From a virus (taxonomy: Duplodnaviria > Heunggongvirae > Uroviricota > Caudoviricetes), in the IMG/VR virus record IMGVR_UViG_2684623171_000007: a DNA stretch of 20,162 nt, one strand, 5' to 3'. Below, in pieces: positions 1-14,563 of the stretch. The position numbers and the translations under genes were made by a program. Within the stretch, counting starts at the first letter, position 1, and each line of letters begins with the position of its first letter. The notes under the pieces are model-generated. The model had not been told where the DNA came from and did no database searches. It worked only from the letters and a program-made list of their open reading frames with translations.

Positions 1-274
1 ATCTACAAGTGCCTTTTTCTGTCAGCGGTTCTCCTTTCCAGCCAATGAGAACCGTCAGGCGCGCGCCCCGTGGCGGTAGCTGCAACTGACCATCTGCATC
101 ATCCAGCGTGATGGTGAGCTGGTCCGCCTCAAATCCCCGGTTGTCGGTCAGTGACAGGCTCATCAGGCGCTCTGCCACGCCTGACAGCGTTTTACCCTCC
201 GCGAGAATATCAAAATCCGGCACTTTCACGTGGTCTGTGCCCTGACTGAGCAATTGCATGGTGGTGTCGGTCAT
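1..274 (-). CDS. D: tail protein D (P2 gpD-like), N-terminal part; gene continues beyond the window start
   Basis: Minus-strand ATG at ~272-274 preceded by a GGGAGGG Shine-Dalgarno. Translation MTDTTMQLLSQGTDHVKVPDFDILAEGKTLSGVAERLMSLSLTDNRGFEADQLTITLDDADGQLQLPPRGARLTVLIGWKGEPLTEKG contains the LTDNRGFEADQ / LDDADGQ block I recall from P2 gpD. Not in the ORF track because it runs off the window edge. Confidence 0.55.
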   Translation of the reverse strand, partial: MTDTTMQLLSQGTDHVKVPDFDILAEGKTLSGVAERLMSLSLTDNRGFEADQLTITLDDADGQLQLPPRGARLTVLIGWKGEPLTEKGTCR

Positions 275-1434
275 CTGTTCCCTCCCTGTGCGGCATGGTC
301 GCATGTGCGTGCGGAGGGGGTTACTGCTTTTTGTTGTCGCCGTGGCGGGAGAACGGCGCAGGGGTGAGATTACGCGAGTGGTGGGTGATGATTGTTGCCG
401 AATCATTTAACGGATACAAGGGGCTGAAGCTATGAGTGAAACTCGTTTTCATGGTGCCCGTGTTACGGAAAGTACCGACCTGGTAACAGCGATTAATGAT
501 GTTGATTCCAGTGTTATCGGTATCGTGGCAACGGCAGATGATGCGGACGCGGAGCTGTTCCCGCTGAACAAGCCCACACTGCTGACCCGCGTCAATGACG
601 TGCTGGGAAAATGCGGGACTACGGGGACGCTTTATCGTGCGCTTAAGGCTATCGCAGACCAGGTGAGCACAAAAGTGATCGTCGTTCGCGTGGCTGAACA
701 CAAAGAAGAAGGCGGTAAGACGCAGGATCAACTGGTTATCGGTGGTTCTGAATCTGACGGCAGCTATACGGGGATGTATGCGCTGCTTGTTGCAGAGCAG
801 GATGAAAGCATCGGATACCGTCCGCGTATTCTGGCCGCGCCGGAGCTGGACACGGAGGCGGTAACAAAATCCCTGTGCGTGATTGCGGGTAAACTGCGCG
901 CGTTTGTGTATGCCACATGTCATGGTTGTAACACGATGGCTGAGGCGATTACCTACCGCCAGAAATTCAACGAACGTGAGGTGATGCTCTTATGGCCTGA
1001 CTTCATCGCCTACAACCTGAAAAGTGGCAAAAACGAAACGTTCCCCGCGCCTGCTTATGCGTGCGGCCTTCGTGCGTACATTGACCATGAGCAGGGCTGG
1101 CACAAATCGCTGTCCAACGTTCCGGTTAAAAATGTGCTTGGGATGTCGAGGCATGTGTTCTGGTCGTTGCAGGCCGAAGACAGTGATGCCAACAGCCTCA
1201 ACAACAAAGAAATCACGACCATTATTCGTCGCAACGGGTTCCGCTTCTGGGGCAACCGCACACCGGAAACGAACGCCTACATCTTTGAGGTGTATACCCG
1301 AACCGCACAGGTGCTGGCTGATTCAATTGCGGAAGCGCAGTTTGAAACCATCGACAGTCCACTGACACCTGCGAACGTGAAGGATGTTATCAGTGCCATC
1401 AGGGCAAAACTGGATTCACTGGTTACTGCCGGGA

Positions 1435-1437
1435 AAC
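1435..1437. repeat. target-site duplication AAC, left copy
   Basis: AAC immediately outside the IS end at 1438; identical AAC at 2748-2750. A 3-bp duplication is typical for IS3-family elements. Confidence 0.75.
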
Positions 1438-1479
1438 TGAACCGCCCCGGGTTTCCTGGAGAGTGTTTTATCTGTGAAC

Positions 1480-2370
1480 TCAGGCTGCCAGATCATCGTT
1501 TCCGATGGAAGCATAATAAGCTTTTTCTGCTTCTGCCGGAGGAGTATGGCCCAGCCTTCCCAGCAATCGTCGATTGTTATACCAGTCCACCCACGTTAGT
1601 GTGGCCAGTTCCACTTCTGCACGGTTTTTCCAGCTCTTACGGTGTATTACCTCCGCTTTGTAAAGACCATTGATGCTCTCAGCCATCGCGTTGTCATACG
1701 AGTCGCCTGTACTCCCTGTTGATGCCAGTAATCCGGCTTCTTTTAGTCGCTCCGTATAGGCCAGTGACACATACTGAGAGCCTTTATCGCTGTGATGGAT
1801 GGTGCCAGACGGACGACGGGCCCACAACGCCTGCTCCAGCGCATCCAGCACGAATGTCGTTTCCATAGACGATGAGACCCGCCACCCCACGATGTATCCG
1901 GCAAACACATCAATGATAAACGCCACATAGACGAAGCCCTGCCATGTGCTGACGTAAGTAAAATCAGCCACCCACAGCTGGTCAGGTCGTTCTGCCACGA
2001 ACTGACGGTTTACGCGGTCGCCTGCGGCAACGGCTTTCCGGCTGATGGTCGTACGGACCTTTTTACCCCGGAGAACACCGGCAAGTCCCATAACCGCCAT
2101 GAGACGTGCCACTGTACATCTGGCCACCCTGATTCCTTCCCGTAACAACTGACGCCAGACTTTACGCACACCGTACACCTGATGATTTTCATCGTATACG
2201 CGCTGTATCTCTCTCTTCAGCCAGTCGTCGTGCTGCGCACGGGCACTGCGTTTATCCGGATGATGTCGCTGTTGCTGACAATGGTAATACGTTGACGGGG
2301 CAATATGCAGTTCGCTGCATACCGGTCCGACCCCGTACTGCTCACGCAGCTTATCCAGCAGTGGCATCAT
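1480..2370 (-). CDS. IS629-like transposase OrfB (catalytic part; normally expressed as an OrfAB fusion by -1 frameshifting in IS3-family elements)
   Basis: ORF track 296 aa in the -1 frame relative to OrfA, overlapping OrfA by 4 nt at an A6 run; contains the DDE-family motifs. Confidence 0.85.
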
Positions 2371-2693
2371 TTTTTCCAGAGGCGGTCGAACTCCGCCTTC
2401 GCAAAATAAGCGGAAGCCTGGCGAAGGATATCGTTACTGCGGCGCAGTTCACGATTTTCACGTTCCAGCTCTTTCAGACGCTGACGTTCAGCGCTGGTGA
2501 GCCCACCATCACCGCCCCCGGTATCCCGCTCATGCTGGCGAACCCAGACACGCAGAGTCTCCGGCGTACAGCCAATCTTTGGGGCAATGGAACAAATTGC
2601 CGCCCACTGTGAGTCATATTCATCCTGACTTTCCAGAACCATACGAATCGCCCGCTGACGGACTTCGGGGGAAAAACGAGTATTTTTAGTCAT
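2367..2693 (-). CDS. IS629-like transposase OrfA (HTH DNA-binding part)
   Basis: ORF track 108 aa: [98 protein letters not shown]. Stop overlaps the OrfB start in an A-rich run (GGAAAAAATGATG). Confidence 0.9.
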
Positions 2694-2747
2694 CCTGTTT
2701 ACCTCTTTCTCAGGGAGTTTAGTCTCCAGGATTTCCGGGGCGGTTCA

Positions 2748-2750
2748 AAC
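2748..2750. repeat. target-site duplication AAC, right copy
   Basis: AAC immediately outside the IS end at 2747; the FI reading frame resumes here. Confidence 0.75.
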
Positions 2751-2928
2751 TGATTGGCGCGGAGTGCTGGTATGACATCGAGGATAACAGCACCACGAAT
2801 TTACGTCAGGGGCGTGTGCGTATTCGCTACAAATATACGCCCGTTCCTCCGCTGGAAGACATGGAGCTTTACCAGTCGTTTACTGATGAATTCTTTGGTC
2901 CCGCATTTGCGGTGCTGGGAGGTGCCTG

Positions 2929-3441
2929 ATGGCTGTACCAAAACATCTTCGCTTTTTTACGCTGTTTGTGGATGGTGAAAACGAAGTGGGTAAGGTGACG
3001 TCCGTCACCCTGCCTAAACTGACGCGCAAAACCGACAGCTACCGGGGTGGTGGCATGATGGGTGCGGTAAGTATTGACCTCGGCCTGGACGACTCCGCGC
3101 TTGATGCGAGCTTTGTCATGGGGGGCGCAGTTCGTGAGCTGTTCCTGAAGTATGGCGGCACGATTGACGGCACGCTACTGCGTTTTGCGGGGGAATACTA
3201 CACCGATGATGAAAGCGACCTGTATGAAGTCGAAATGCGCGGACGTGTGACGGAAATTGATATGGGGGAAGCCAAACAGGGCGAAGCCACATCACACACT
3301 TACGCCATTAAAAACACCTACTACAAGCTGAGTGTTAACGATCGCCCGTTGTGGGAGATTGACCTGCTGAACTTCATTTACCGGAAGGACGGCAAGGACA
3401 TTGTGCCCGATCGCATCCGTTCCGCGCTTGGGCTTGGCTGA
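2929..3441 (+). CDS. FII: tail tube protein (P2 gpFII-like)
   Basis: ORF track 170 aa; ATG overlaps the FI stop (TGATG). Motifs TLPKLTRKTDSYRGGGMMGAVSIDLGLDD...LRFAGEYYTDDESD..EMRGR..EIDMGEAKQGE resemble P2 FII as I recall it. Position directly after the sheath gene. Confidence 0.85.
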   Translation: MAVPKHLRFFTLFVDGENEVGKVTSVTLPKLTRKTDSYRGGGMMGAVSIDLGLDDSALDASFVMGGAVRELFLKYGGTIDGTLLRFAGEYYTDDESDLYEVEMRGRVTEIDMGEAKQGEATSHTYAIKNTYYKLSVNDRPLWEIDLLNFIYRKDGKDIVPDRIRSALGLG

Positions 3442-3495
3442 TAAGTAATATGCAGGCGGCGCAGTGCGTCGCCTCTGACTGAAAGGAGTTTCCTG

Positions 3496-3861
3496 ATGAA
3501 AGAGACGAAAAACATCGATACCGAAAACACGGTAGTTACTGACACTGTGAAAGAAACCAGTGAGCGTGGTGTAAAACTTACCCAACCAATTGAGCGAGGC
3601 GGCGAAAAAATCACGTATGTGGAGATCACCGGGGCTATTGAGCAGGCTGGATCTCTGCGAGATTTGTCGCTGTCTGATGTGCTGAATCTGAAAGCGGAAT
3701 CCATGTTTACGCTGCTGTCACGCGTGACATCACCGCGACTGGATGAAGTGACGATCAAAAAAATGGCATCCCGTGACTTTATTCAGTTATGTGTGGTTGC
3801 CGTAAATTTTTTGAGCGGTGCGGACTCTGGCGGGAAGAACGAACAGGCGACGGAAGCCTGA
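3496..3861 (+). CDS. E: tail assembly chaperone (P2 gpE-like), zero-frame product
   Basis: ORF track 121 aa; GGAG-type Shine-Dalgarno upstream (GAAAGGAGTTTCCTGATG). Position between the tube and tape-measure genes; contains a TTTTTTG slippery heptamer near its 3' end. Confidence 0.7.
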   Translation: MKETKNIDTENTVVTDTVKETSERGVKLTQPIERGGEKITYVEITGAIEQAGSLRDLSLSDVLNLKAESMFTLLSRVTSPRLDEVTIKKMASRDFIQLCVVAVNFLSGADSGGKNEQATEA

Positions 3862-4025
3862 TCACGGTTGTGTGCTTTGAGCACATAGAAGACTTTGTGG
3901 CAGATATTGCCGTTATTTTTAACTGGTCGCCCGCCGAAATCTTCATGATGACGCCCGGCGAAGTGGTTAGCTGGCGTGAGCGGGCGGCACTTCGCAGCGG
4001 GAATGCAGACAATGAAGACTCTTGA
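3496..4025 (+). CDS. E': tail assembly chaperone E+E' fusion, predicted -1 programmed frameshift product (3496..~3812 joined to the -1 frame ending 4025)
   Basis: Heptamer T_TTT_TTG at ~3807-3813 is in the correct phase in the E frame (codons AAT TTT TTG). The -1 frame (ORF track 3789..4025) is open from the slip site for ~70 codons and ends just inside the start of the tape-measure ORF. The same G/GT-type arrangement and T6G motif are established for the P2 E/E' genes. Confidence 0.6.
3807..3813 (+). other. candidate -1 ribosomal frameshift slippery site TTTTTTG
   Basis: Seen directly in the sequence, phased X_XXY_YYZ in the E reading frame. Confidence 0.6.
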
Positions 4026-6815
4026 TATCCGGGTCGCTTTCAGCGCCGTTGACAGGCTGACCCGACCTGCCGAAAACGCACGCCGCCTGATGGGGCAGTT
4101 TGGTGACTCCATCCAGCGAACGCAGGGGGCGATCAAAAATCTCGAGCGTCAGGCGCGATCATTTGAGCGCGCCCGCGACGCTGTCAGTAAAGCGGATGCT
4201 GGCATCGTGAAAGCACGACGCCAGCTTAACGCCCTTAATCAGTTACAACGCACGGGTACAGTGCTCAGCGAAAAACAACAAAAGCTGATGCAGCAGTTAA
4301 GCACCCGGCTTGAACGCCTGAATGAATCGCGCACACGGGAAATTCAGAAAATGAGGGAACTTGGCGGAGAGCTGAAACGCCACGGCATTTCCCTGACAGG
4401 CAGCGATAACACCATTCAGCAGGCCATCAGACGCACCGAACAATACAACAACCAGCTTGAACGCGAACGGCAGGCGCTTGCGCGTGTAACGCAGGCGCGT
4501 GAGCGGTATTCGCACGCGCAGGAAACCGCGGGAAAACTGAAAACAGGTGGTGCGCTGGCAATTGGTGCGGCAGCGGCGGGCGGCTATGCTGCCGGGCGTT
4601 TTTTGCAGCCTGCGATCGGGTTCGGCAAAGAGATGTCCCGCGTTCAGGCACTGACGCGAATCGACAAAAACAGCCCGCAGTTTAAGGCGCTGCGTGAGCA
4701 GGCGTTAAAACTTGCTGAAACACAGTTTACTGCGAGTGATGCCGCCAGTGGGCAGAGCTTTCTGGCAATGGCTGGTTTTACTCCGCAGGCCATTCAGGCC
4801 GCATTGCCCGGTGTTCTTAATATGGCGCTGGCAGGTGGCGTCGAACTCGGCGAGACGGCTGATATAGGCTCCAATATCCTCACACAGTTCAACCTGACAG
4901 CCGATCAAATGGACCGGGTGGGCGATACGCTGACAGCAGCATTTACCCGGACCAATACTGATTTACGCGCGCTGGGCGAAACCATGAAGTATACCGGTCC
5001 GGTTGCCGCAAAACTTGGTATCAGTCTTGAAGAAGCGGCGGCCATGGCCGGGATGCTTGCCAATAATGGTCTTCGCGGAAGCGATGCTGGCACGGCCATG
5101 CGCGCAAGTCTGTCCCGCCTTGCATCACCGCCAAAAGCTGCGGCTGATGCACTGAAAGAGCTGGGGGTGTCAGTTGCTGAGGCCAGAGGCAAAATGCGCC
5201 CGATGGAGGATGTGCTGCTTGATCTCTATAAGGCGACACAAAAATACGGACAGGTGGACCAGGTCTCCTTCTTCAAGGACATCGCCGGAGAAGAGGCGTT
5301 CGTTGGTTTGCAGACGCTTGTTGCGGCGGCTGGTTCAGGAGAGCTGCAAAAACTGACCAGAGAATTGCAGGGGGCAAGGGGAGAGGCCGATCGCGTCGCA
5401 AAAGTAATGGCTGATAATCTTGATGGGGACCTGAAAAATCTCGACAGCGCATGGGAAGGTCTTCGTATTCGCATCAGTGATCTGGTTGACGGTCCGCTGC
5501 GTTCTGTCACGCAGTGGCTCACGCGGGTGCTTGAAAAAATCACCTCGCTGGCGCAGGCCCATCCGGTACTGACGCGCCAGCTACTGATAGCAGGCGGTGC
5601 GTTGCTGGCAATGACTGCAACGATTGGCTCGTTGTCGCTGGTTATTGGGGTGCTTTACGGGAAGCTGGCCACCCTGCGTCTTGGTTTTGACATTCTTACC
5701 CGGTCAATGAATGTCGTCAGGGTGTTACCTGCGCTATGGGGAATGGTGACGGGTTCCGTTTCTTTACTGGGAGGCGTTATCGGGGCGTTGTTCAGTCCGG
5801 TTGGTCTTATCGTGGCTGCGCTTGCCGGAGCTGCCGTTCTTATCTGGAAATACTGGGATCCTATCAGGGCTTTCTTTGCCGGGGTGTTCAGCGGGATTAT
5901 GGAAAGGCTGACCCCGTTGCGCGACACCTTTGAACGGTTTGGCCCTGTTTTTGACGTAATCGGAAGCGGTTCAGCCAGGTGTTTAACTGGTTTAAATCGC
6001 TGCTGTCACCGATGGAGTCCAGCAAGGAAACGCTGGATAAATGTACCAGTGCTGGCGAGGTATTCGGTAACGTTCTTGGTGGTGCGTTACAGCTTGTTCT
6101 GACGCCTGCAAAAATGTTGCTGGATACGCTGGCGTGGATACTTGAAAAACTCGGTGTGCTTCCGGATGAAGCGGAAAGGGCGCGCAAGAAAATCGAAGAC
6201 GCACAACGTGCGGCCATTCTTCAGGACAAGGTTGCTCTGTTTCAGGGAGACATTGCGAAAATCAATCCGCCGAAGTCTGCGGGAAATAGCAATGGCACCG
6301 GAGATGATAAACCCAAAGACAACAAACCTCTCACAGACAGCAATACCGGCACGCTACGCAGACTCAGCAAAATTGCTGATAACACAGGTAAGCTGGTTGA
6401 TGAGACAAAAAAACGCATTGGCCCCGGCGATATTGTCTTTAAGAACCTGCCCCGCGCACTTGCTGTTCGTGGGGAGTGGCAGGAGCGGAAGATTGCGCAG
6501 GTCAGTAAGCCTGCCCCCGCAATTAATATCACACCCGTGGTCCCGGCTCCGCTGCCTCCGGCGCTGGTCCCTGTTGTTGCGGCCAGCTCCCGCCCGGTGG
6601 TGGAGGCCATACGATCGCCAGTGGCATCAGTTCCTGCAACTTCCCGTAACCGGGAGCCTGTTGCCTCCGGATTTGGCGGTGAAATTCATGTTCATCTGCA
6701 TAACGTTGTTACGCAGAATCCCCGCGAACTGGCGAAACTGGTCGGCGAAATGGTCAGGGCAGAAATGGAACGGCGCGCCCGTGCCAGGCGTGGCAGTTTT
6801 TACGATAAAGATTGA
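3976..6815 (+). pseudogene. T: tail tape measure protein (P2 gpT-like), split into two frames by an apparent 1-bp frameshift near 5966-5980
   Basis: ORF track 3976..6102 (708 aa, GTG at 3976; alternative in-frame ATGs at ~4003 and ~4012) is coiled-coil-rich with a long hydrophobic stretch, as expected for a tape measure. ORF 5979..6815 (278 aa) continues in the -1 frame with no gap. Around GGAAGCGGTTCAGCCAGGTG, one extra T (GGTTTCAGC) would give a continuous ..FDVIGSGFSQVFNWFKSLL.. reading. The C-terminal frame ends 13 nt before the U gene. Confidence 0.7.
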
Positions 6816-6827
6816 GGAGTCATGGCC

Positions 6828-7316
6828 ATGATGATGATCTACGGCATGTTTGTTTTTGAGCTGCGCACGTTGCCGCATCAGCAGTTACAGCAAAACAAAA
6901 GCTGGCGACATGTGAAAAATGAACGCGTTAACCGTTCAGCAAGCTGGCAGTATATCGGTGCAGGTGATGATCGCATCGTTCTTTCTGGTGTTCTTTATCC
7001 TGAGATTACTGGTGGCGAAGTGTCGCTGTCGTTGTTGACCACGCAGGCATATACAGGACGTCCTTGGCCTTTGATTGATGGCGTCGGGCAGATTTACGGC
7101 ATGTATGTCCTGACCGGAACGAATACGACCCGCTCCGAGTTTGATCGCTACGGTAAGGCGAAAAAGATAGAATTTTCACTGACTCTTGAACGCTGTGATG
7201 AGGATTTGCGGGAGCGCCTGCAATCCTCATCGTTCAGCGATATGCTGTCCGGCTTCAAAGATAAGGTGACATCATCCCTTAATAGCGCGGCCAGCTCAGT
7301 TAAGGGGCTGCTCTGA
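6828..7316 (+). CDS. U: tail protein (P2 gpU-like)
   Basis: ORF track 6822..7316. GAGGAG Shine-Dalgarno at ~6814-6819 is best spaced for the ATG at 6828 (MMMIYGMFVFELRTLP...). Motifs YPEITGG and WPLIDGVGQIYGMYVLTG resemble P2 gpU as I recall it. Confidence 0.8.
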   Translation: MMMIYGMFVFELRTLPHQQLQQNKSWRHVKNERVNRSASWQYIGAGDDRIVLSGVLYPEITGGEVSLSLLTTQAYTGRPWPLIDGVGQIYGMYVLTGTNTTRSEFDRYGKAKKIEFSLTLERCDEDLRERLQSSSFSDMLSGFKDKVTSSLNSAASSVKGLL

Positions 7317-7439: not shown

Positions 7440-8045
7440 GTGTGGTCTGAAATAATAATTAAGGAGATTATCGTGCTATCTTACTTAATGGCAATTCACT
7501 TTGTTTTATTTGGAAACTCTACTAATTTAAAAAACTTCTGGAAACATGAAGTAATTCGGCGGAAACGTATGGATATCTGGAGGCTTTTAAGAGAGAAAAA
7601 ACAGCGTAACCGGAATTTCCTTTTCTGGTGGCGGTTGGCTAACGAAATGTATATTAATGGTAATAAATTACATAAGAAAGCAGCCAAAAAGTTAAACAGT
7701 AAAATAATTAACAAGTTTGGTTGTGAAATAGGATTGGGCGCAAATATTGGAAAAGGGTTGACAATTCCCCATCATGCTGGAATTGTTGTTCATTTTGCTG
7801 TTGATGCGGGTGAAAATCTGGTATTACGACAGAATACTACCATTGGACAGATAGATGGTGATATGCCTAGTTCAAGAGTAAAAATTGGTAGTAACGTTGA
7901 TATCGGAGCTAATTGTTGCATCATTGGATTATCACGTAAAATTGGGGATAATGTAAAAATAGGTGCAATGTCTTTTATAAATAAAGATATACCATCAAAC
8001 TGCACATATATAACTAAAAAGAGTGGTGTTGTATTGTATAAATAG
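7440..8045 (+). CDS. hexapeptide-repeat (left-handed beta-helix) acyltransferase, serine/sugar O-acetyltransferase-like; low-GC cargo gene
   Basis: ORF track 201 aa. Likely true start is GTG at ~7473 after AAGGAG (MLSYLMAIHF...). Tandem hexapeptide [LIV]-G-x-x-x-x pattern (GCEIGLGANIGKGLTIPHHAGIVVHFAVDAGENLVLRQNTTIGQIDG...VKIGSNVDIGANCCIIG..KIGDNVKIGAMSFI) typical of the CysE/WcaB/LacA acetyltransferase family. The segment 7320-8090 is visibly AT-rich compared with the flanking tail genes. Confidence 0.7.
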   Translation: MWSEIIIKEIIVLSYLMAIHFVLFGNSTNLKNFWKHEVIRRKRMDIWRLLREKKQRNRNFLFWWRLANEMYINGNKLHKKAAKKLNSKIINKFGCEIGLGANIGKGLTIPHHAGIVVHFAVDAGENLVLRQNTTIGQIDGDMPSSRVKIGSNVDIGANCCIIGLSRKIGDNVKIGAMSFINKDIPSNCTYITKKSGVVLYK

Positions 8046-8054
8046 AGTACATAA

Positions 8055-8090
8055 AGCCATCGATATTTCTGTCGATGGCTTTTTCTTTTT
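8055..8090. terminator. candidate bidirectional rho-independent terminator between convergent genes
   Basis: Perfect 9-bp stem AGCCATCGA / TCGATGGCT with an 8-nt loop, followed by TTTTTCTTTTT on the plus strand and preceded by an A-rich run. Lies between the acyltransferase stop (8045) and the tfa stop (8089). Confidence 0.55.
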
Positions 8091-8621
8091 ATTGTGGGGC
8101 GACTGGCCACTCAACATCCGCTGCTACTGTTGTATCAACACGATTCAACAATACCCGATATGTCTTCCATGCAGCCAGTAACGATGCCTCTTCCTCCGTC
8201 GCAATATCCAAATCTACGGCATCCTGAAGTGGCGCAATATGCTCACTGGCTACCTGCATCAGGCTGTTTTTTGTTTCTTCTGCCTCCCGTACCCGAAACA
8301 GTTTTTCTGCTTCTGCATCTTTCGCCCAGGATGTGCCGTTCCACTTCTGACACTCTCCATCCGGCGACAACCAGGTAACATTTTCCGGTAACGGACCGAG
8401 TTCAGAAATAAATAACGCGTCGCCGGAAGCCACGTCATAAACCGTTTTACCCCGATGATCTTCAACGAGATGCCACGATGCCTCATTACTGTTGAAAACA
8501 GCCACGAAGCCAGCCGGAATATCTGGCGGTGCAATATCGGTACTGTTTGCTGGCAGACCTGTATGAGGCGGAATGTATGCGTCACCTTCACCAATAAATT
8601 CATTAGTTCCGGCCAGCAGAT
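8089..8621 (-). pseudogene. tfa: tail fibre assembly protein (Tfa, P2 gpG-like), 5'-truncated by the IS629-like insertion at 8622
   Basis: ORF track 8089..8505 (GTG-initiated) ends ..[30 protein letters not shown], the characteristic Tfa C-terminus. The same frame stays open upstream to the IS boundary (..[45 protein letters not shown]..), matching the internal part of Tfa proteins as I recall them; about 15-20 N-terminal codons and the start codon are missing. Confidence 0.85.
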
Positions 8622-8675
8622 TGAACCGCCCCGGGAATCCTGGAGACTAAACTCCCTGAGAAAGAGGTAAACAGG

Positions 8676-9002
8676 ATGACTAAAAATACACGTTTTTCCC
8701 CCGAGGTCCGTCAACGGGCAGTCCGTATGGTTCTGGAAAGTCAGGGCGAATATGACTCACAATGGGCGGCAATTCGTTCCATTGCCCCAAAGATTGGCTG
8801 TACACCAGAGACTCTGCGTGTGTGGGTTCGTCAGCATGAGCGGGATACCGGGGGCGGTGATGGTGGACTCACCACCGCTGAACGTCAGCGTCTGAAAGAG
8901 CTGGAACGTGAAAATCGTGAACTGCGCCGCAGTAACGATATCCTTCGCCAGGCTTCCGCTTATTTTGCGAAGGCGGAGTTCGACCGCCTCTGGAAAAAAT
9001 AA
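8676..9002 (+). CDS. IS629-like transposase OrfA (copy 2)
   Basis: ORF track 108 aa; differs from copy 1 OrfA at 4 residues (V16, G24, R34, T67 versus I, D, C, S). Confidence 0.85.
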
Positions 9003-9678
9003 TGCCGCTGCTGGATAAGCTGCGTGAGCAGTACGGGGTCGGACCGGTATGCAGTGAACTGCATATTGCCCCGTCAACGGATTACCACTGTCAGCAACAG
9101 CGACATCATCCGGATAAACGCAGTGCCCGTGCGCAGCGCGATGACTGGCTGAAGAGAGAGATACAGCGCGTATACGATGAAAATCATCAGGTGTACGGTG
9201 TGCGTAAAGTCTGGCGCCAGTTGTTACGCGAAGGTATCAGGGTGGCCAGATGTACAGTGGCGCGCCTCATGGCGGTTATGGGACTTGCCGGTGTTCTCCG
9301 GGGTAAAAAGGTCCGTACTACCGTCAGCCGGAAAGCCGTTTCCGCAGGCGACCGCGTAAACCGTCAGTTCGTGGCAGAACGTCCTGACCAGCTGTGGGTG
9401 GCTGATTTTACTTACGTCAGCACATGGCAGGGCTTCGTCTATGTGGCGTTCATCATTGATGTGTTTTCCGGATGTATCGTGGGGTGGCGAGTCTCATCGT
9501 CTATGGAAACGACATTCGTGCTGGATGCACTGGAGCAGGCGTTGTGGGCCCGTCGGCCGTCCGGCACAGTCCATCACAGTGATAAAGGTTCTCAGTATGT
9601 ATCACTGGCCTATACGGAGCGACTAAAAGAAGCAAAACTGCTGGCATCAACAGGGAGTACAGGTGACTCGTATGACAA
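9002..9678 (+). pseudogene. IS629-like transposase OrfB, C-terminally truncated (copy 2)
   Basis: ORF track 9002..9691 (229 aa); the last residues (..DSYDNVFY*) are read from non-IS sequence, so the conserved C-terminal ~70 aa of OrfB are missing. Confidence 0.8.
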
Positions 9679-9710
9679 TGTATTTTATTAGTTCACATAC
9701 AATTATCAGA

Positions 9711-10025
9711 TTATTCTGGGAATAAGGTCTGAATATTCTTTTTTATTTTATAAAAATTGCATTCAACTCCGCTAGGCTGATTAGCCTGGTATGTTTCCTT
9801 GATGCTAACGGTATTGAAGGGGAGGTTGTCCTCTGGCCATTCGGCCATCCAGTAGGCAAATGCTGGGTTGCGCTTTATGAGTGCTAGCCCAGCCAGAAAG
9901 GCCGCGCGTTGCGCGCGGCTGCGTTCGGAGGCTGGCAGGCTATCGAGGTAATTGCACGCCTCCTGTTCACTCTTGACGGCGGCGGGCTTCAGATAGAAAC
10001 TTATCCGTCTGGTTGGTGTCGTCAT
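9711..10025 (-). CDS. parR: ParR/StbB-like centromere-binding partition protein (ribbon-helix-helix)
   Basis: ORF track 104 aa; starts 5 bp after the parM-like stop. N-terminal half (RRISFYLKP...LDSLPASERSRAQRAAFLAGLAL) resembles ParR of plasmid R1 as I recall it (..TIAFKLNP..LDSIPQGERSRLNRAALTAGLAL..). The C-terminal third is divergent and encoded by AT-rich DNA next to the IS junction. Confidence 0.6.
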   Translation of the reverse strand: MTTPTRRISFYLKPAAVKSEQEACNYLDSLPASERSRAQRAAFLAGLALIKRNPAFAYWMAEWPEDNLPFNTVSIKETYQANQPSGVECNFYKIKKNIQTLFPE

Positions 10026-10029
10026 TGGT

Positions 10030-10989
10030 TTACTCCTTGTTCATTGCGTACAACCCATTAACCAGAGCAAACTGTGGCACCCCGTCCGCGATGAAAGTCG
10101 CATTAACTCCGCAGGCTTCGCGGATAGCGGTTGCCACAATCTCCGCCCCGCCACCGACAACCATCACCCGCCCGTAACCCGAAAAAACCGCCAGCGCGCG
10201 GATCACGCGTTGTTTCAGTGTTTCTTCCTTTTCACGAATAACCGCCATCAGGCTGGCGTAATGCGCGTCATTGTGGATGTGCTGGCGCAGCCAGGCTTCA
10301 TCATGGCGATGTTCGATAATGGTATTGGCGATGTGGTGACTGGTGCGCATACCGTTAGTGGCCATCACCGACAGTACGGCATCGGCCATCAGAGAAACGC
10401 CTACGTGTGGATCGCAAAACACCTGGCTGATACCTGCCAGTTGCCCCTGAACCTTTGCCACATCCAGCGTGGTTCCGCCCAAATCCACAATCAGCAGGGA
10501 TTCAAACGGACTCATGTCAGCCAGTGCCTTAAAGCCAGCAGGAATGGATTCAGGCATAACCCGTACGTTACGGATAGTGAATGCTTCGCCGTTCTGGTAC
10601 TCCACCGGGCGCATGACGTTCGCTTTTTTGCGGTTGATGTTGGCCATGTCCGGCTGTGCGTTTGTATCGAAATACTCGCTCAGTGGCAGGGTGACAACCA
10701 CATCCACTTCCTGTGGTGTGATGCCTGATTTGACCAGCGCGTGATGAATGGCAATTACATTCACATCGCTGTACTGGTATTGCGTGTCGGTCGTCTGGAC
10801 AAAGCGATCGCTGACCGGATCAAAACCATAGCGCACGCCATCAAGCATGTAGTTCGCGGGCTGCGTGCCACCGAATGGCGCAGACCATTCCGACTTGAAG
10901 CTGTTCGGGCTGATGGCGTTGCGGCGTTCGCCGTTCTCAGTCCATGCCAGCTTGATGTTGGTGGAGCCGTCGTCGATACAAATTTTCAT
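10030..10989 (-). CDS. parM: ParM/StbA-like actin-type partition ATPase
   Basis: ORF track 319 aa with AAGGA Shine-Dalgarno. Family-defining blocks IDDGSTNIKL, ISPNSF, YQYSDVNVIAIHHAL, MPESIPAG, LIVDLGGTTLD, GVSL, FSGY..VMVVGGGAE and LVNGLY align with R1 ParM/StbA as I recall it. Confidence 0.85.
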   Translation of the reverse strand: MKICIDDGSTNIKLAWTENGERRNAISPNSFKSEWSAPFGGTQPANYMLDGVRYGFDPVSDRFVQTTDTQYQYSDVNVIAIHHALVKSGITPQEVDVVVTLPLSEYFDTNAQPDMANINRKKANVMRPVEYQNGEAFTIRNVRVMPESIPAGFKALADMSPFESLLIVDLGGTTLDVAKVQGQLAGISQVFCDPHVGVSLMADAVLSVMATNGMRTSHHIANTIIEHRHDEAWLRQHIHNDAHYASLMAVIREKEETLKQRVIRALAVFSGYGRVMVVGGGAEIVATAIREACGVNATFIADGVPQFALVNGLYAMNKE

Positions 10990-14332: not shown

Positions 14333-14563
14333 TTAATGGAGTTTGTTTTGCTGCTGGATGAGCTGTTGAAACTCGTGCAGATCATCCGCCAGATAGCTGA
14401 AAACAGAGGCGGAATAAATGTTTGATAGTGCGTGGCTGCGCTCATGCAGCATATTGATGTGCATGATTTGCGCGACGCGTGATGCGCGGGAAAGTCTGCG
14501 GTTGATTTCAGTCTGGATGTGACGACGCTCCGCGATAGCGCGGTGCTGTTTGCGGTCTGCCAT
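14333..14563 (-). CDS. hypothetical small basic protein (76 aa)
   Basis: ORF track; AAGAGG Shine-Dalgarno about 8 nt upstream of the ATG. Preferred over the overlapping 205-aa ORF 14257..14874, which has low-complexity composition. Confidence 0.4.
   Translation of the reverse strand: MADRKQHRAIAERRHIQTEINRRLSRASRVAQIMHINMLHERSHALSNIYSASVFSYLADDLHEFQQLIQQQNKLH

Follow-up and report, generated by a model that had tools for sequence, protein, structure and literature searches.

How a prophage can keep part of a tail module and a full early region with none of the modules that normally lie between them is the question raised by the DNA on either side of a truncated insertion sequence in a P2-like element. 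An earlier note on this DNA had proposed that a cut-off IS629-like copy, lying between the tail fibre assembly gene tfa and the partition gene parR, marks a deletion junction that removed the head, lysis and baseplate modules. Here, the element that carries the junction is identified, the two sides of the junction are placed to the base, the interval that appears to have been lost is sized against intact relatives, and the routes by which the junction could have formed are weighed. The window, by which we mean the whole stretch of DNA that was analysed, is 20,162 bases long, and the features of it that bear on the question are collected in Table 1.

Chromosomes of the E. coli O157:H7 strains FRIK944, FRIK2455, FRIK2533, FRIK2069 and BB24-1 match the window with 100% identity. 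In FRIK944 the window is flanked by the glyW-cysT-leuZ tRNA cluster and an IS30 on one side and by yecA on the other, and the element is bracketed, close beyond the ends of the window, by a 121-bp direct repeat that includes the leuZ 3' end (L001 11833-11953 and 34269-34389); both att sites are therefore present. The Sakai RefSeq record labels the corresponding stretch "prophage Sp13, P2-like phage" and has, exactly at the truncated IS copy, a 1057-bp repeat_region named "IS1203 Family: IS3 partial". The sequences across both junctions of that copy are 100% identical in Sakai and EDL933, in the latter of which the counterpart of Sp13 goes by the name CP-933T. Compared with Sp13 of Sakai, the window copy has an extra full-length IS629 in the sheath gene, which Sakai lacks, and the window omits ~2 kb at the left end of the element (two small ORFs, the IS30 and attL) and 0.23 kb at its right end (attR). 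We are highly confident, as one joint account, that the stretch represents Sp13, a defective prophage of E. coli O157:H7 that is P88-like (P2 family) and lies integrated at the leuZ tRNA gene, and that this single prophage took up an IS in tfa and then underwent an interstitial deletion reaching to near parR.

Much about Sp13 has been described before. A study published in 2009 determined that Sp13 lacks most morphogenetic genes and is the sole P2-like prophage in Sakai, and that it excises, replicates, is inducible with mitomycin C and occurs even in a form that is protected from DNase (PMC2669165). Rump et al. found one IS629 site in Sp13 that is common to four O157:H7 genomes and a second that occurs only in EC4115 and TW14359, and the Sp13 target region was seen only in clonal complex A6 (PMC3271280). 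The scar is thus already known, as the Sakai reference carries an annotation for the partial IS and the missing morphogenesis genes have been described (PMC2669165).

The distribution of the scar was determined in 5,426 complete E. coli genomes with two queries, one of 300 bp across the left junction of the IS copy and one of 300 bp across the right junction. Each is present at full length in 264 genomes, and the window as a whole (at a coverage of at least 80%) is likewise found in 264 of the 5,426; the matches listed are all O157. Neither a left junction lacking the right one nor the converse was found among the 5,426 genomes, so this collection holds no intermediate, and the deletion scar is fixed in 264 of the 264 complete genomes that have the element.

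Table 1. Features of the window that bear on the origin of the junction, with window coordinates, strand and the evidence for each assignment.
Feature	Position	Strand	Evidence or remark
gpD N-terminal fragment (late control D / tail protein)	8..274	-	PGAP; Sakai annotation with 'IS30 partial'
Tail sheath gene, two parts	432-1437 and 2748-2929		split by IS copy 1
IS629/IS1203 copy 1, full length, 1310 bp	1438..2747	-	annotation, alignment; splits the tail sheath gene
Tape-measure gene, frameshifted pseudogene	4012..6815	+	PGAP 'frameshifted'; Sakai pseudogene ECs_2640; split ORFs
tfa remnant, codons 16-192 and stop	8089..8621	-	Pfam Caudo_TAP (E = 2.6e-40), BLASTP
IS copy 2, truncated IS629-type element (IS3 family), nt 1-1057 of 1310	8622..9678	+	alignment to copy 1, Pfam, Sakai annotation
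Deletion junction, IS nt 1057 joined to phage DNA	9678..9679	.	three-way alignment, string comparison, flank BLAST
Native AT-rich spacer downstream of parR, 32 nt	9679..9710	.	100% identical to CEA212U prophage DNA
parR, plasmid stability protein B family	9711..10025	-	Pfam Plasmid_stab_B (E = 7.7e-29), PGAP
parM, actin-like segregation ATPase	10030..10989	-	Pfam StbA_N, ParM_N
Gene A-type replication endonuclease, 940 aa	11066..13888	-	Pfam Phage_GPA (E = 2.4e-131); DNA identity of 97.7% to P88-like phage records

The truncated element (copy 2) was mapped with the full-length copy 1 as a reference from within the window. Its left inverted repeat is intact and begins at 8622 (TGAACCGCCCCGGG...), and copy 2 can be aligned to copy 1 up to 9678, beyond which the two diverge completely. 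Alignment to full-length elements shows no right inverted repeat in copy 2, as homology ends at nt 1057 and the last 253 bp are lost. The position of the break was fixed with a reference of the same subtype, namely a full-length 1310-bp element in ydjE of strain 7386Nal that differs from copy 2 at only one of the 1057 positions (1056 of 1057 identical). Past the breakpoint, the 7386Nal element continues from ...GACAA into CGCGATGG and the window continues from ...GACAA into TGTATTT.

The coding capacity of copy 2 reflects this cut. orfA is whole (8676-9002) and orfB follows in the -1 frame with an annotated frameshift pseudoknot; Pfam finds HTH_Tnp_1 in orfA and HTH_21 and rve in orfB. OrfB (9002-9691) has 225 IS-encoded residues that end in ...DSYDN and is closed by VFY and a stop codon contributed by phage DNA. 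In the OrfB of copy 1, E231 lies 36 positions beyond the second Asp, D195, both of which we take to belong to the DD(35)E triad on the basis of what is established for the IS3 family. The OrfB of copy 2 stops four residues short of this Glu and so does not have a complete triad. The earlier description of an IS copy truncated within OrfB is therefore correct, and the alignment that had been suggested as a check puts the cut at IS nt 1057 with either reference.

Copy 2 shares the left inverted repeat, orfA, orfB and the frameshift pseudoknot with IS629/IS1203 and differs from it in ending at nt 1057 and in having no recoverable target duplication, the right flank having been lost with the deletion; 3-bp duplications are found at copy 1 (AAC) and at the 7386Nal copy (CTG). 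With only the left of the two terminal inverted repeats (TG...CA), it is a remnant and an incomplete member of its group, and it is probably immobile by itself because the right inverted repeat and the catalytic Glu are both missing. Copy 2 and copy 1 are 95.08% identical (52 mismatches), and ~300 further records contain copies that are at least 99% identical to copy 2. IS629 is known to comprise distinct subtypes that are 4-5% apart (PMC3271280). Since the ~5% divergence from copy 1 matches this spread, copy 2 fits an IS629 subtype distinct from the common O157 IS629/IS1203 copy (95.1% identity).

On the left of copy 2, the tfa remnant aligns to residues 16-192 of the 192-aa homologue from the prophage of O111:H8 7-58 72A with 95% identity (BLASTP), and in the DNA alignment homology to tfa reaches right up to the IS end; therefore only the start codon and 15 codons have been lost. 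The IS does cut off the 5' end of tfa, as had been claimed, with its intact left end in codon 16 and 15 codons gone. The annotated starts of the remnant differ, as PGAP calls a CTG at 8619 and the Sakai annotation a GTG at 8505; the PGAP start is a by-product of homology-based start calling.

On the right of copy 2, the DNA from 9679 on is native phage sequence that is 100% identical over 200 bp to a prophage of strain CEA212U. The earlier note had described AT-rich DNA here and a distance of 33 bp to the parR stop; the first holds (22% GC over 9679-9760) and the second becomes 32 nt. At the joint itself, A9678 is common to the IS and the phage, giving a possible overlap of 1 nt, and a search for microhomology or repeats at both deletion endpoints yielded this single shared A only. 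Beyond the spacer, parR and parM are full length and gene A, at 940 codons, matches its P88 counterpart in length. The region from gene A through parM to parR has 97.4-97.9% DNA identity to P88, P884B11 and vB_EcoM-569R5. The published excision, replication and mitomycin C induction of Sp13 (PMC2669165) support the conclusion that its early region is functional.

Because the gene A-parM-parR region is 97-98% identical to the P88 group, the appropriate reference for this element is P88-like (Xuanwuvirus) and not P2. P88 (Peduoviridae, Xuanwuvirus) shares with it the early-region gene set, with parMR downstream of gene A, as well as a sheath-tube-E-T-U block encoded on the other strand from H/tfa and D. 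The P88 genome is complete, with 35.8 kb, whereas the window element has IS elements and is missing ogr, most of D and the ~15-16 kb that span H to Q; the position of its serine O-acetyltransferase-like gene is taken in P88 by a DNA invertase together with an alternative fibre cassette.

Six intact relatives were used to determine what lay between tfa and parR: P88, the prophages of CEA212U, O111:H8 7-58 72A, 1070/13 and O55:H7 CB9615, and a second prophage of FRIK2455 and FRIK944. In all six the order is colinear, tfa-H-I-J-W-V-S-R-lysis-X-L-M-N-O-P-Q-cargo-parR, with one to four variable cargo genes before parR, and in those measured tfa and parR are separated by 14.7-16.5 kb. The interval is 15,995 bp in CEA212U (L002 4004-19998; 20 annotated genes), in which both window flanks were placed by BLAST. 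It is ~15.1 kb in O111:H8 7-58 72A, with the left flank placed by BLAST and the right end by gene coordinates, and ~16.5 kb in 1070/13 and ~14.7 kb in P88, both from gene coordinates. The 200-bp flanks of the junction had no BLAST match in P88, the second prophage of FRIK2455 or the CB9615 prophage because the tfa type and the DNA downstream of parR differ in these three, so that breakpoints can be placed only by CEA212U (both flanks) and the O111 prophage (left flank) and are estimated from gene coordinates in the others.

The annotation of the window contains no gene for the head, terminase, portal, lysis, baseplate or tail fibre. The comparison supports a loss that would comprise the tail fibre gene H, the baseplate genes I, J, W and V, the tail completion genes R and S, the lysis cassette, X and L. 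It likewise indicates that the terminase genes M and P, the capsid gene N, the scaffold gene O, the portal gene Q and the variable cargo genes are missing. A P2 cos motif (GGCGAGGCGGGGAAAGCAC, and a degenerate form of it) had no match in the window, in the loci or in L002 at up to 3 mismatches; by its position next to Q in P2-type phages, the cos region was probably lost as well. As the order from tfa to parR is colinear in all six relatives, one interstitial deletion would be sufficient to explain the arrangement in the window.

With the sizing against intact related prophages that the earlier note had called for (15,995 bp in CEA212U), its central claim is borne out: the IS copy sits where the relatives carry ~15-16 kb of head, lysis and baseplate genes between tfa and parR. 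Its description of a defective remnant without capsid, lysis, baseplate and tail-fibre genes agrees equally with the annotation, as the element does not have the complete head, packaging, lysis, baseplate and fibre modules together with ogr and is a defective derivative. The note had also taken a P2-type genome with an old/tin region as its reference. The missing modules are those that it named from this reference; the slot between parR and Q in the P88-like relatives is occupied by variable cargo and not by old/tin.

In the course of events that we favour, an IS629-type element would have entered tfa at codon 16, its left end pointing towards the part of the gene that survives. A later deletion would have run from a point within the IS, after nt 1057, to a point 32 nt downstream of the parR stop. 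Gone with it would be the terminal 253 bp of the IS, 45-46 nt from the start of tfa and the ~15-16 kb that reach from H to the cargo genes. Because the joint has at most 1 nt of homology, the ends were probably brought together in a single event by end-joining after a break. In one possible version, the transposase would have cut at the right IS end, resection would have removed 253 bp on the IS side and ~16 kb on the phage side, and the ends would have been sealed by IEE-type joining. The breakpoints, and the content that lies between them in the relatives, are observed. The order, insertion first and deletion later, and the number of events are what we infer, because the pre-deletion form (the same integrase at leuZ, an IS in tfa and H to Q kept) was not found among the genomes searched.

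The version with resection and IEE-type joining is patterned on the scheme put forward for IEE-dependent deletions beside IS629, whose sizes range from a few nt to >40 kb (PMC9943667). The Sp13 scar resembles the IS629/IEE deletions of O157 in being a large (~16 kb) deletion beside an IS629-type element in a prophage with minimal homology at the joint, and 0-1 nt of homology would be compatible with end-joining triggered by IEE and transposase. It differs from them in that the known deletions adjoin the IS (PMC9943667), whereas the endpoint here lies 253 bp inside it, and a role for IEE and transposase at this site is presumed. Two familiar routes were considered and rejected. The endpoint of a classical IS-mediated adjacent deletion would coincide with an intact IS terminus and would not lie 253 bp inside the element, and after homologous recombination between direct IS copies one would expect a complete hybrid IS and not a fragment of 1057 bp.

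The same final sequence would be compatible with a decay in two steps, in which a transposase-mediated adjacent deletion from the intact right IS end was followed by a small deletion of 253 bp and some flank. IS3-family elements, IS629 included, are known to make adjacent deletions (PMC9943667). This route requires two events where one suffices, and the equal counts of the left and right junctions (264 and 264 in 5,426 genomes) leave no two-step intermediate; we therefore think it rather unlikely.

The two flanks have different closest relatives in the database, as the SAT-tfa side is 96.4% identical to the O111 prophage and the parR side is 99.6% identical to the CEA212U prophage. This could be taken to mean that two P88-like genomes or prophages, one of which carried an IS, were fused at this IS by illegitimate recombination. 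Such mosaicism is general among these prophages, however, and both halves have the order and orientation expected of one genome, with a single int, a single gene A and a single matching pair of att repeats. A fusion would in any case entail a net loss of the same modules, and we judge it improbable.

The ends of IS3-family elements terminate in CA, and with the 1-nt ambiguity at the joint the IS part can be read as ending in ...GACA. Strand transfer by transposase from a cryptic internal end (the CA at nt 1055-1056) to a site near parR, with deletion of the DNA between, would thus leave such a joint; the sequence upstream of nt 1056 is unlike a true right inverted repeat beyond the CA, a dinucleotide that is expected by chance, and this route is highly improbable.

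A last alternative is that the head, lysis and baseplate block was not lost and that IS629 copies instead mediated its relocation to another part of the chromosome. To examine this, the 11.2-kb I-to-Q block of CEA212U was compared with the complete E. coli genomes, and it matches 1,479 of them. FRIK944 and FRIK2455 do carry the full gene set ~200 kb from the window. At that locus, between ihfA and btuC, the genes belong to a complete and independent P88-like prophage with its own int, repressor C, gene A, parMR, sheath-to-U genes, D and ogr, which no IS flanks, and O55:H7 CB9615 has a prophage at the same site. In these two strains the missing modules were thus not found beside an IS629 copy, the arrangement that the earlier note had named as the one that would speak for an inversion. 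Since O157:H7 makes up only one of 60 evenly spaced rows of the matches (FRIK2455), where ~10 would be expected if all 264 genomes had the module, and since Sakai has no other P2-like prophage (PMC2669165), we give a translocation almost no credence.

With the account of IS insertion followed by a single deletion in a single prophage preferred, the state of the retained tail genes can be considered. The earlier note had described the regulatory, replication, partition and partial tail modules as intact-looking, which stands for the early region and fails for the tail, where the sheath, tape-measure and gpD genes are damaged (Table 1) and ogr is absent from the element according to the window annotation, the Sakai annotation and PMC2669165. 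Without ogr, the late genes are predicted to be expressed at a low level, unless the ogr homologue on Sp2 provides the function. The gpD fragment ends at window base 8, just before the IS30 that lies immediately outside the window start, and this is a second decayed end of the prophage. The split of the sheath gene is a feature of the strain lineage and is absent from Sakai. The sheath-to-U block is opposite to the P2 order, and an O157-specific inversion of it through the two oppositely oriented IS copies was considered as a reason for this. That candidate was rejected because the orientation is the same in P88, in five intact prophage relatives and in Sakai, which is without copy 1; by this comparison the orientation appears as a trait of the whole P88 group.

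As a consequence of the deletion, the Sp13 remnant is predicted to be unable to build particles or to lyse its host. It retains the att repeats, int, the repressor switch, an epsilon-like derepressor, gene A and ParMR, and this set (att repeats, int, switch, gene A and ParMR) fits the published excision and replication of Sp13 (PMC2669165). One speculative reading, which we regard as unlikely, is that the deletion derivative is maintained as a self-excising, self-replicating and partition-competent mini-replicon that could travel in the particles of other prophages. Under that reading, the complete sibling prophage of FRIK944 and FRIK2455 could serve as a helper or a recombination partner, and chimeric phages that are viable could arise anew. 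A lesser possibility is a trans effect of the truncated IS on active IS629 copies, which is conceivable because OrfA is intact while OrfB, and any frameshifted OrfAB, is without the catalytic Glu.

The current understanding of Sp13 is not changed by these results, and the additions to it are modest: the exact breakpoint and the size and content of the loss relative to P88-type relatives. To these may be added the distinct IS subtype and the intact sibling prophage in some O157 strains, which could interact with the remnant. The junction provides a base-resolved example of how IS elements and deletions degrade the prophages of E. coli O157:H7, and the deletion that it marks would explain why Sp13 does not make particles and yet still excises and replicates.

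Direct repeats of 121 bp that differ at one position flank the prophage Sp13; the two copies, each made up of the last 55 nt of leuZ and a terminator-like hairpin downstream, mark attL and attR. The sheath-tube-E-E'-T-U block is read from the strand opposite to that of tfa/H and gpD, unlike in P2. A rearrangement within O157 was ruled out as the source of this orientation since the block is opposed in the same way in phage P88 and in all five intact prophage relatives. The opposed block is thus a lineage trait of the P88-like phages.

Coordinates of the features discussed (L001, chromosomal locus with flanks; L005 and L006, second-prophage loci; L007, phage P88)
Feature	Location	Remarks
Direct repeat	L001 11833-11953 and 34269-34389	outside window
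IS30	L001 12864-14000 (region)	directly outside window start
gpD fragment	within window 1-274	N-terminal part only; ends beside IS30
gpD, strand comparison	window 8-274	opposite to sheath-U block
Sheath-tube-E-E'-T-U block	window 432-7316	opposite to tfa/H and gpD
P88 counterpart of block	L007 27600-33175
IS629/IS1203, full length	window 1438-2747	1310 bp; target duplication AAC; splits tail sheath gene
Tape-measure gene	window 4012-6815	frameshifted
Hexapeptide-repeat, serine O-acetyltransferase-like gene	window 7473-8045	between gpU and tfa; low GC (~34%)
tfa, strand comparison	window 8089-8621	opposite to sheath-U block
Annotated 'derepression protein' gene	window 14333-14563	P4 epsilon-like
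Complete prophage, FRIK944	L006 13288-48047 (chromosome 2,468,287-2,503,046)	between btuC and ihfA
Complete prophage, FRIK2455	L005	between btuC and ihfA

The IS629 in the sheath gene is lineage-specific, as it is missing from the Sakai copy of Sp13. It may be the second Sp13 IS629 site that was found only in EC4115 and TW14359 (PMC3271280). PGAP and the Sakai annotation both list the tape-measure gene as a pseudogene. At its opposite end, where the gpD fragment stops beside IS30, the prophage has decayed independently a second time; ogr is absent there, and the stretch from leuZ to IS30 contains two small hypothetical ORFs.

The tfa remnant retains a complete Caudo_TAP domain, and its reading frame runs into the IS as far as a TAG at 8647-8649. 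PGAP places the start at a CTG at 8619, hard against the IS end, whereas the Sakai annotation uses a GTG at 8505 resulting in a protein of 138 aa. Expression of the remnant, if any, would need an internal start. The acetyltransferase-like gene is probably a moron; in P88 and several relatives the slot between gpU and tfa is instead occupied by a DNA invertase together with an alternative cassette for tail fibres.

Asadulghani et al. proposed that the P4 epsilon-like gene explains the mitomycin C inducibility of Sp13, which is unusual for a P2-type prophage. In FRIK944 and FRIK2455 the Sp13 copy matches the window at 100% identity, and both strains have in addition a complete P88-like prophage ~200 kb away, at a site that is likewise occupied by a prophage in O55:H7 CB9615 (locus L008). 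Some identical proteins are common to this sibling and the window element, including gpE' (WP_000333495.1) and a MarR-family protein (WP_000153707.1). The sibling prophage could serve as a helper or a recombination partner for the Sp13 remnant.
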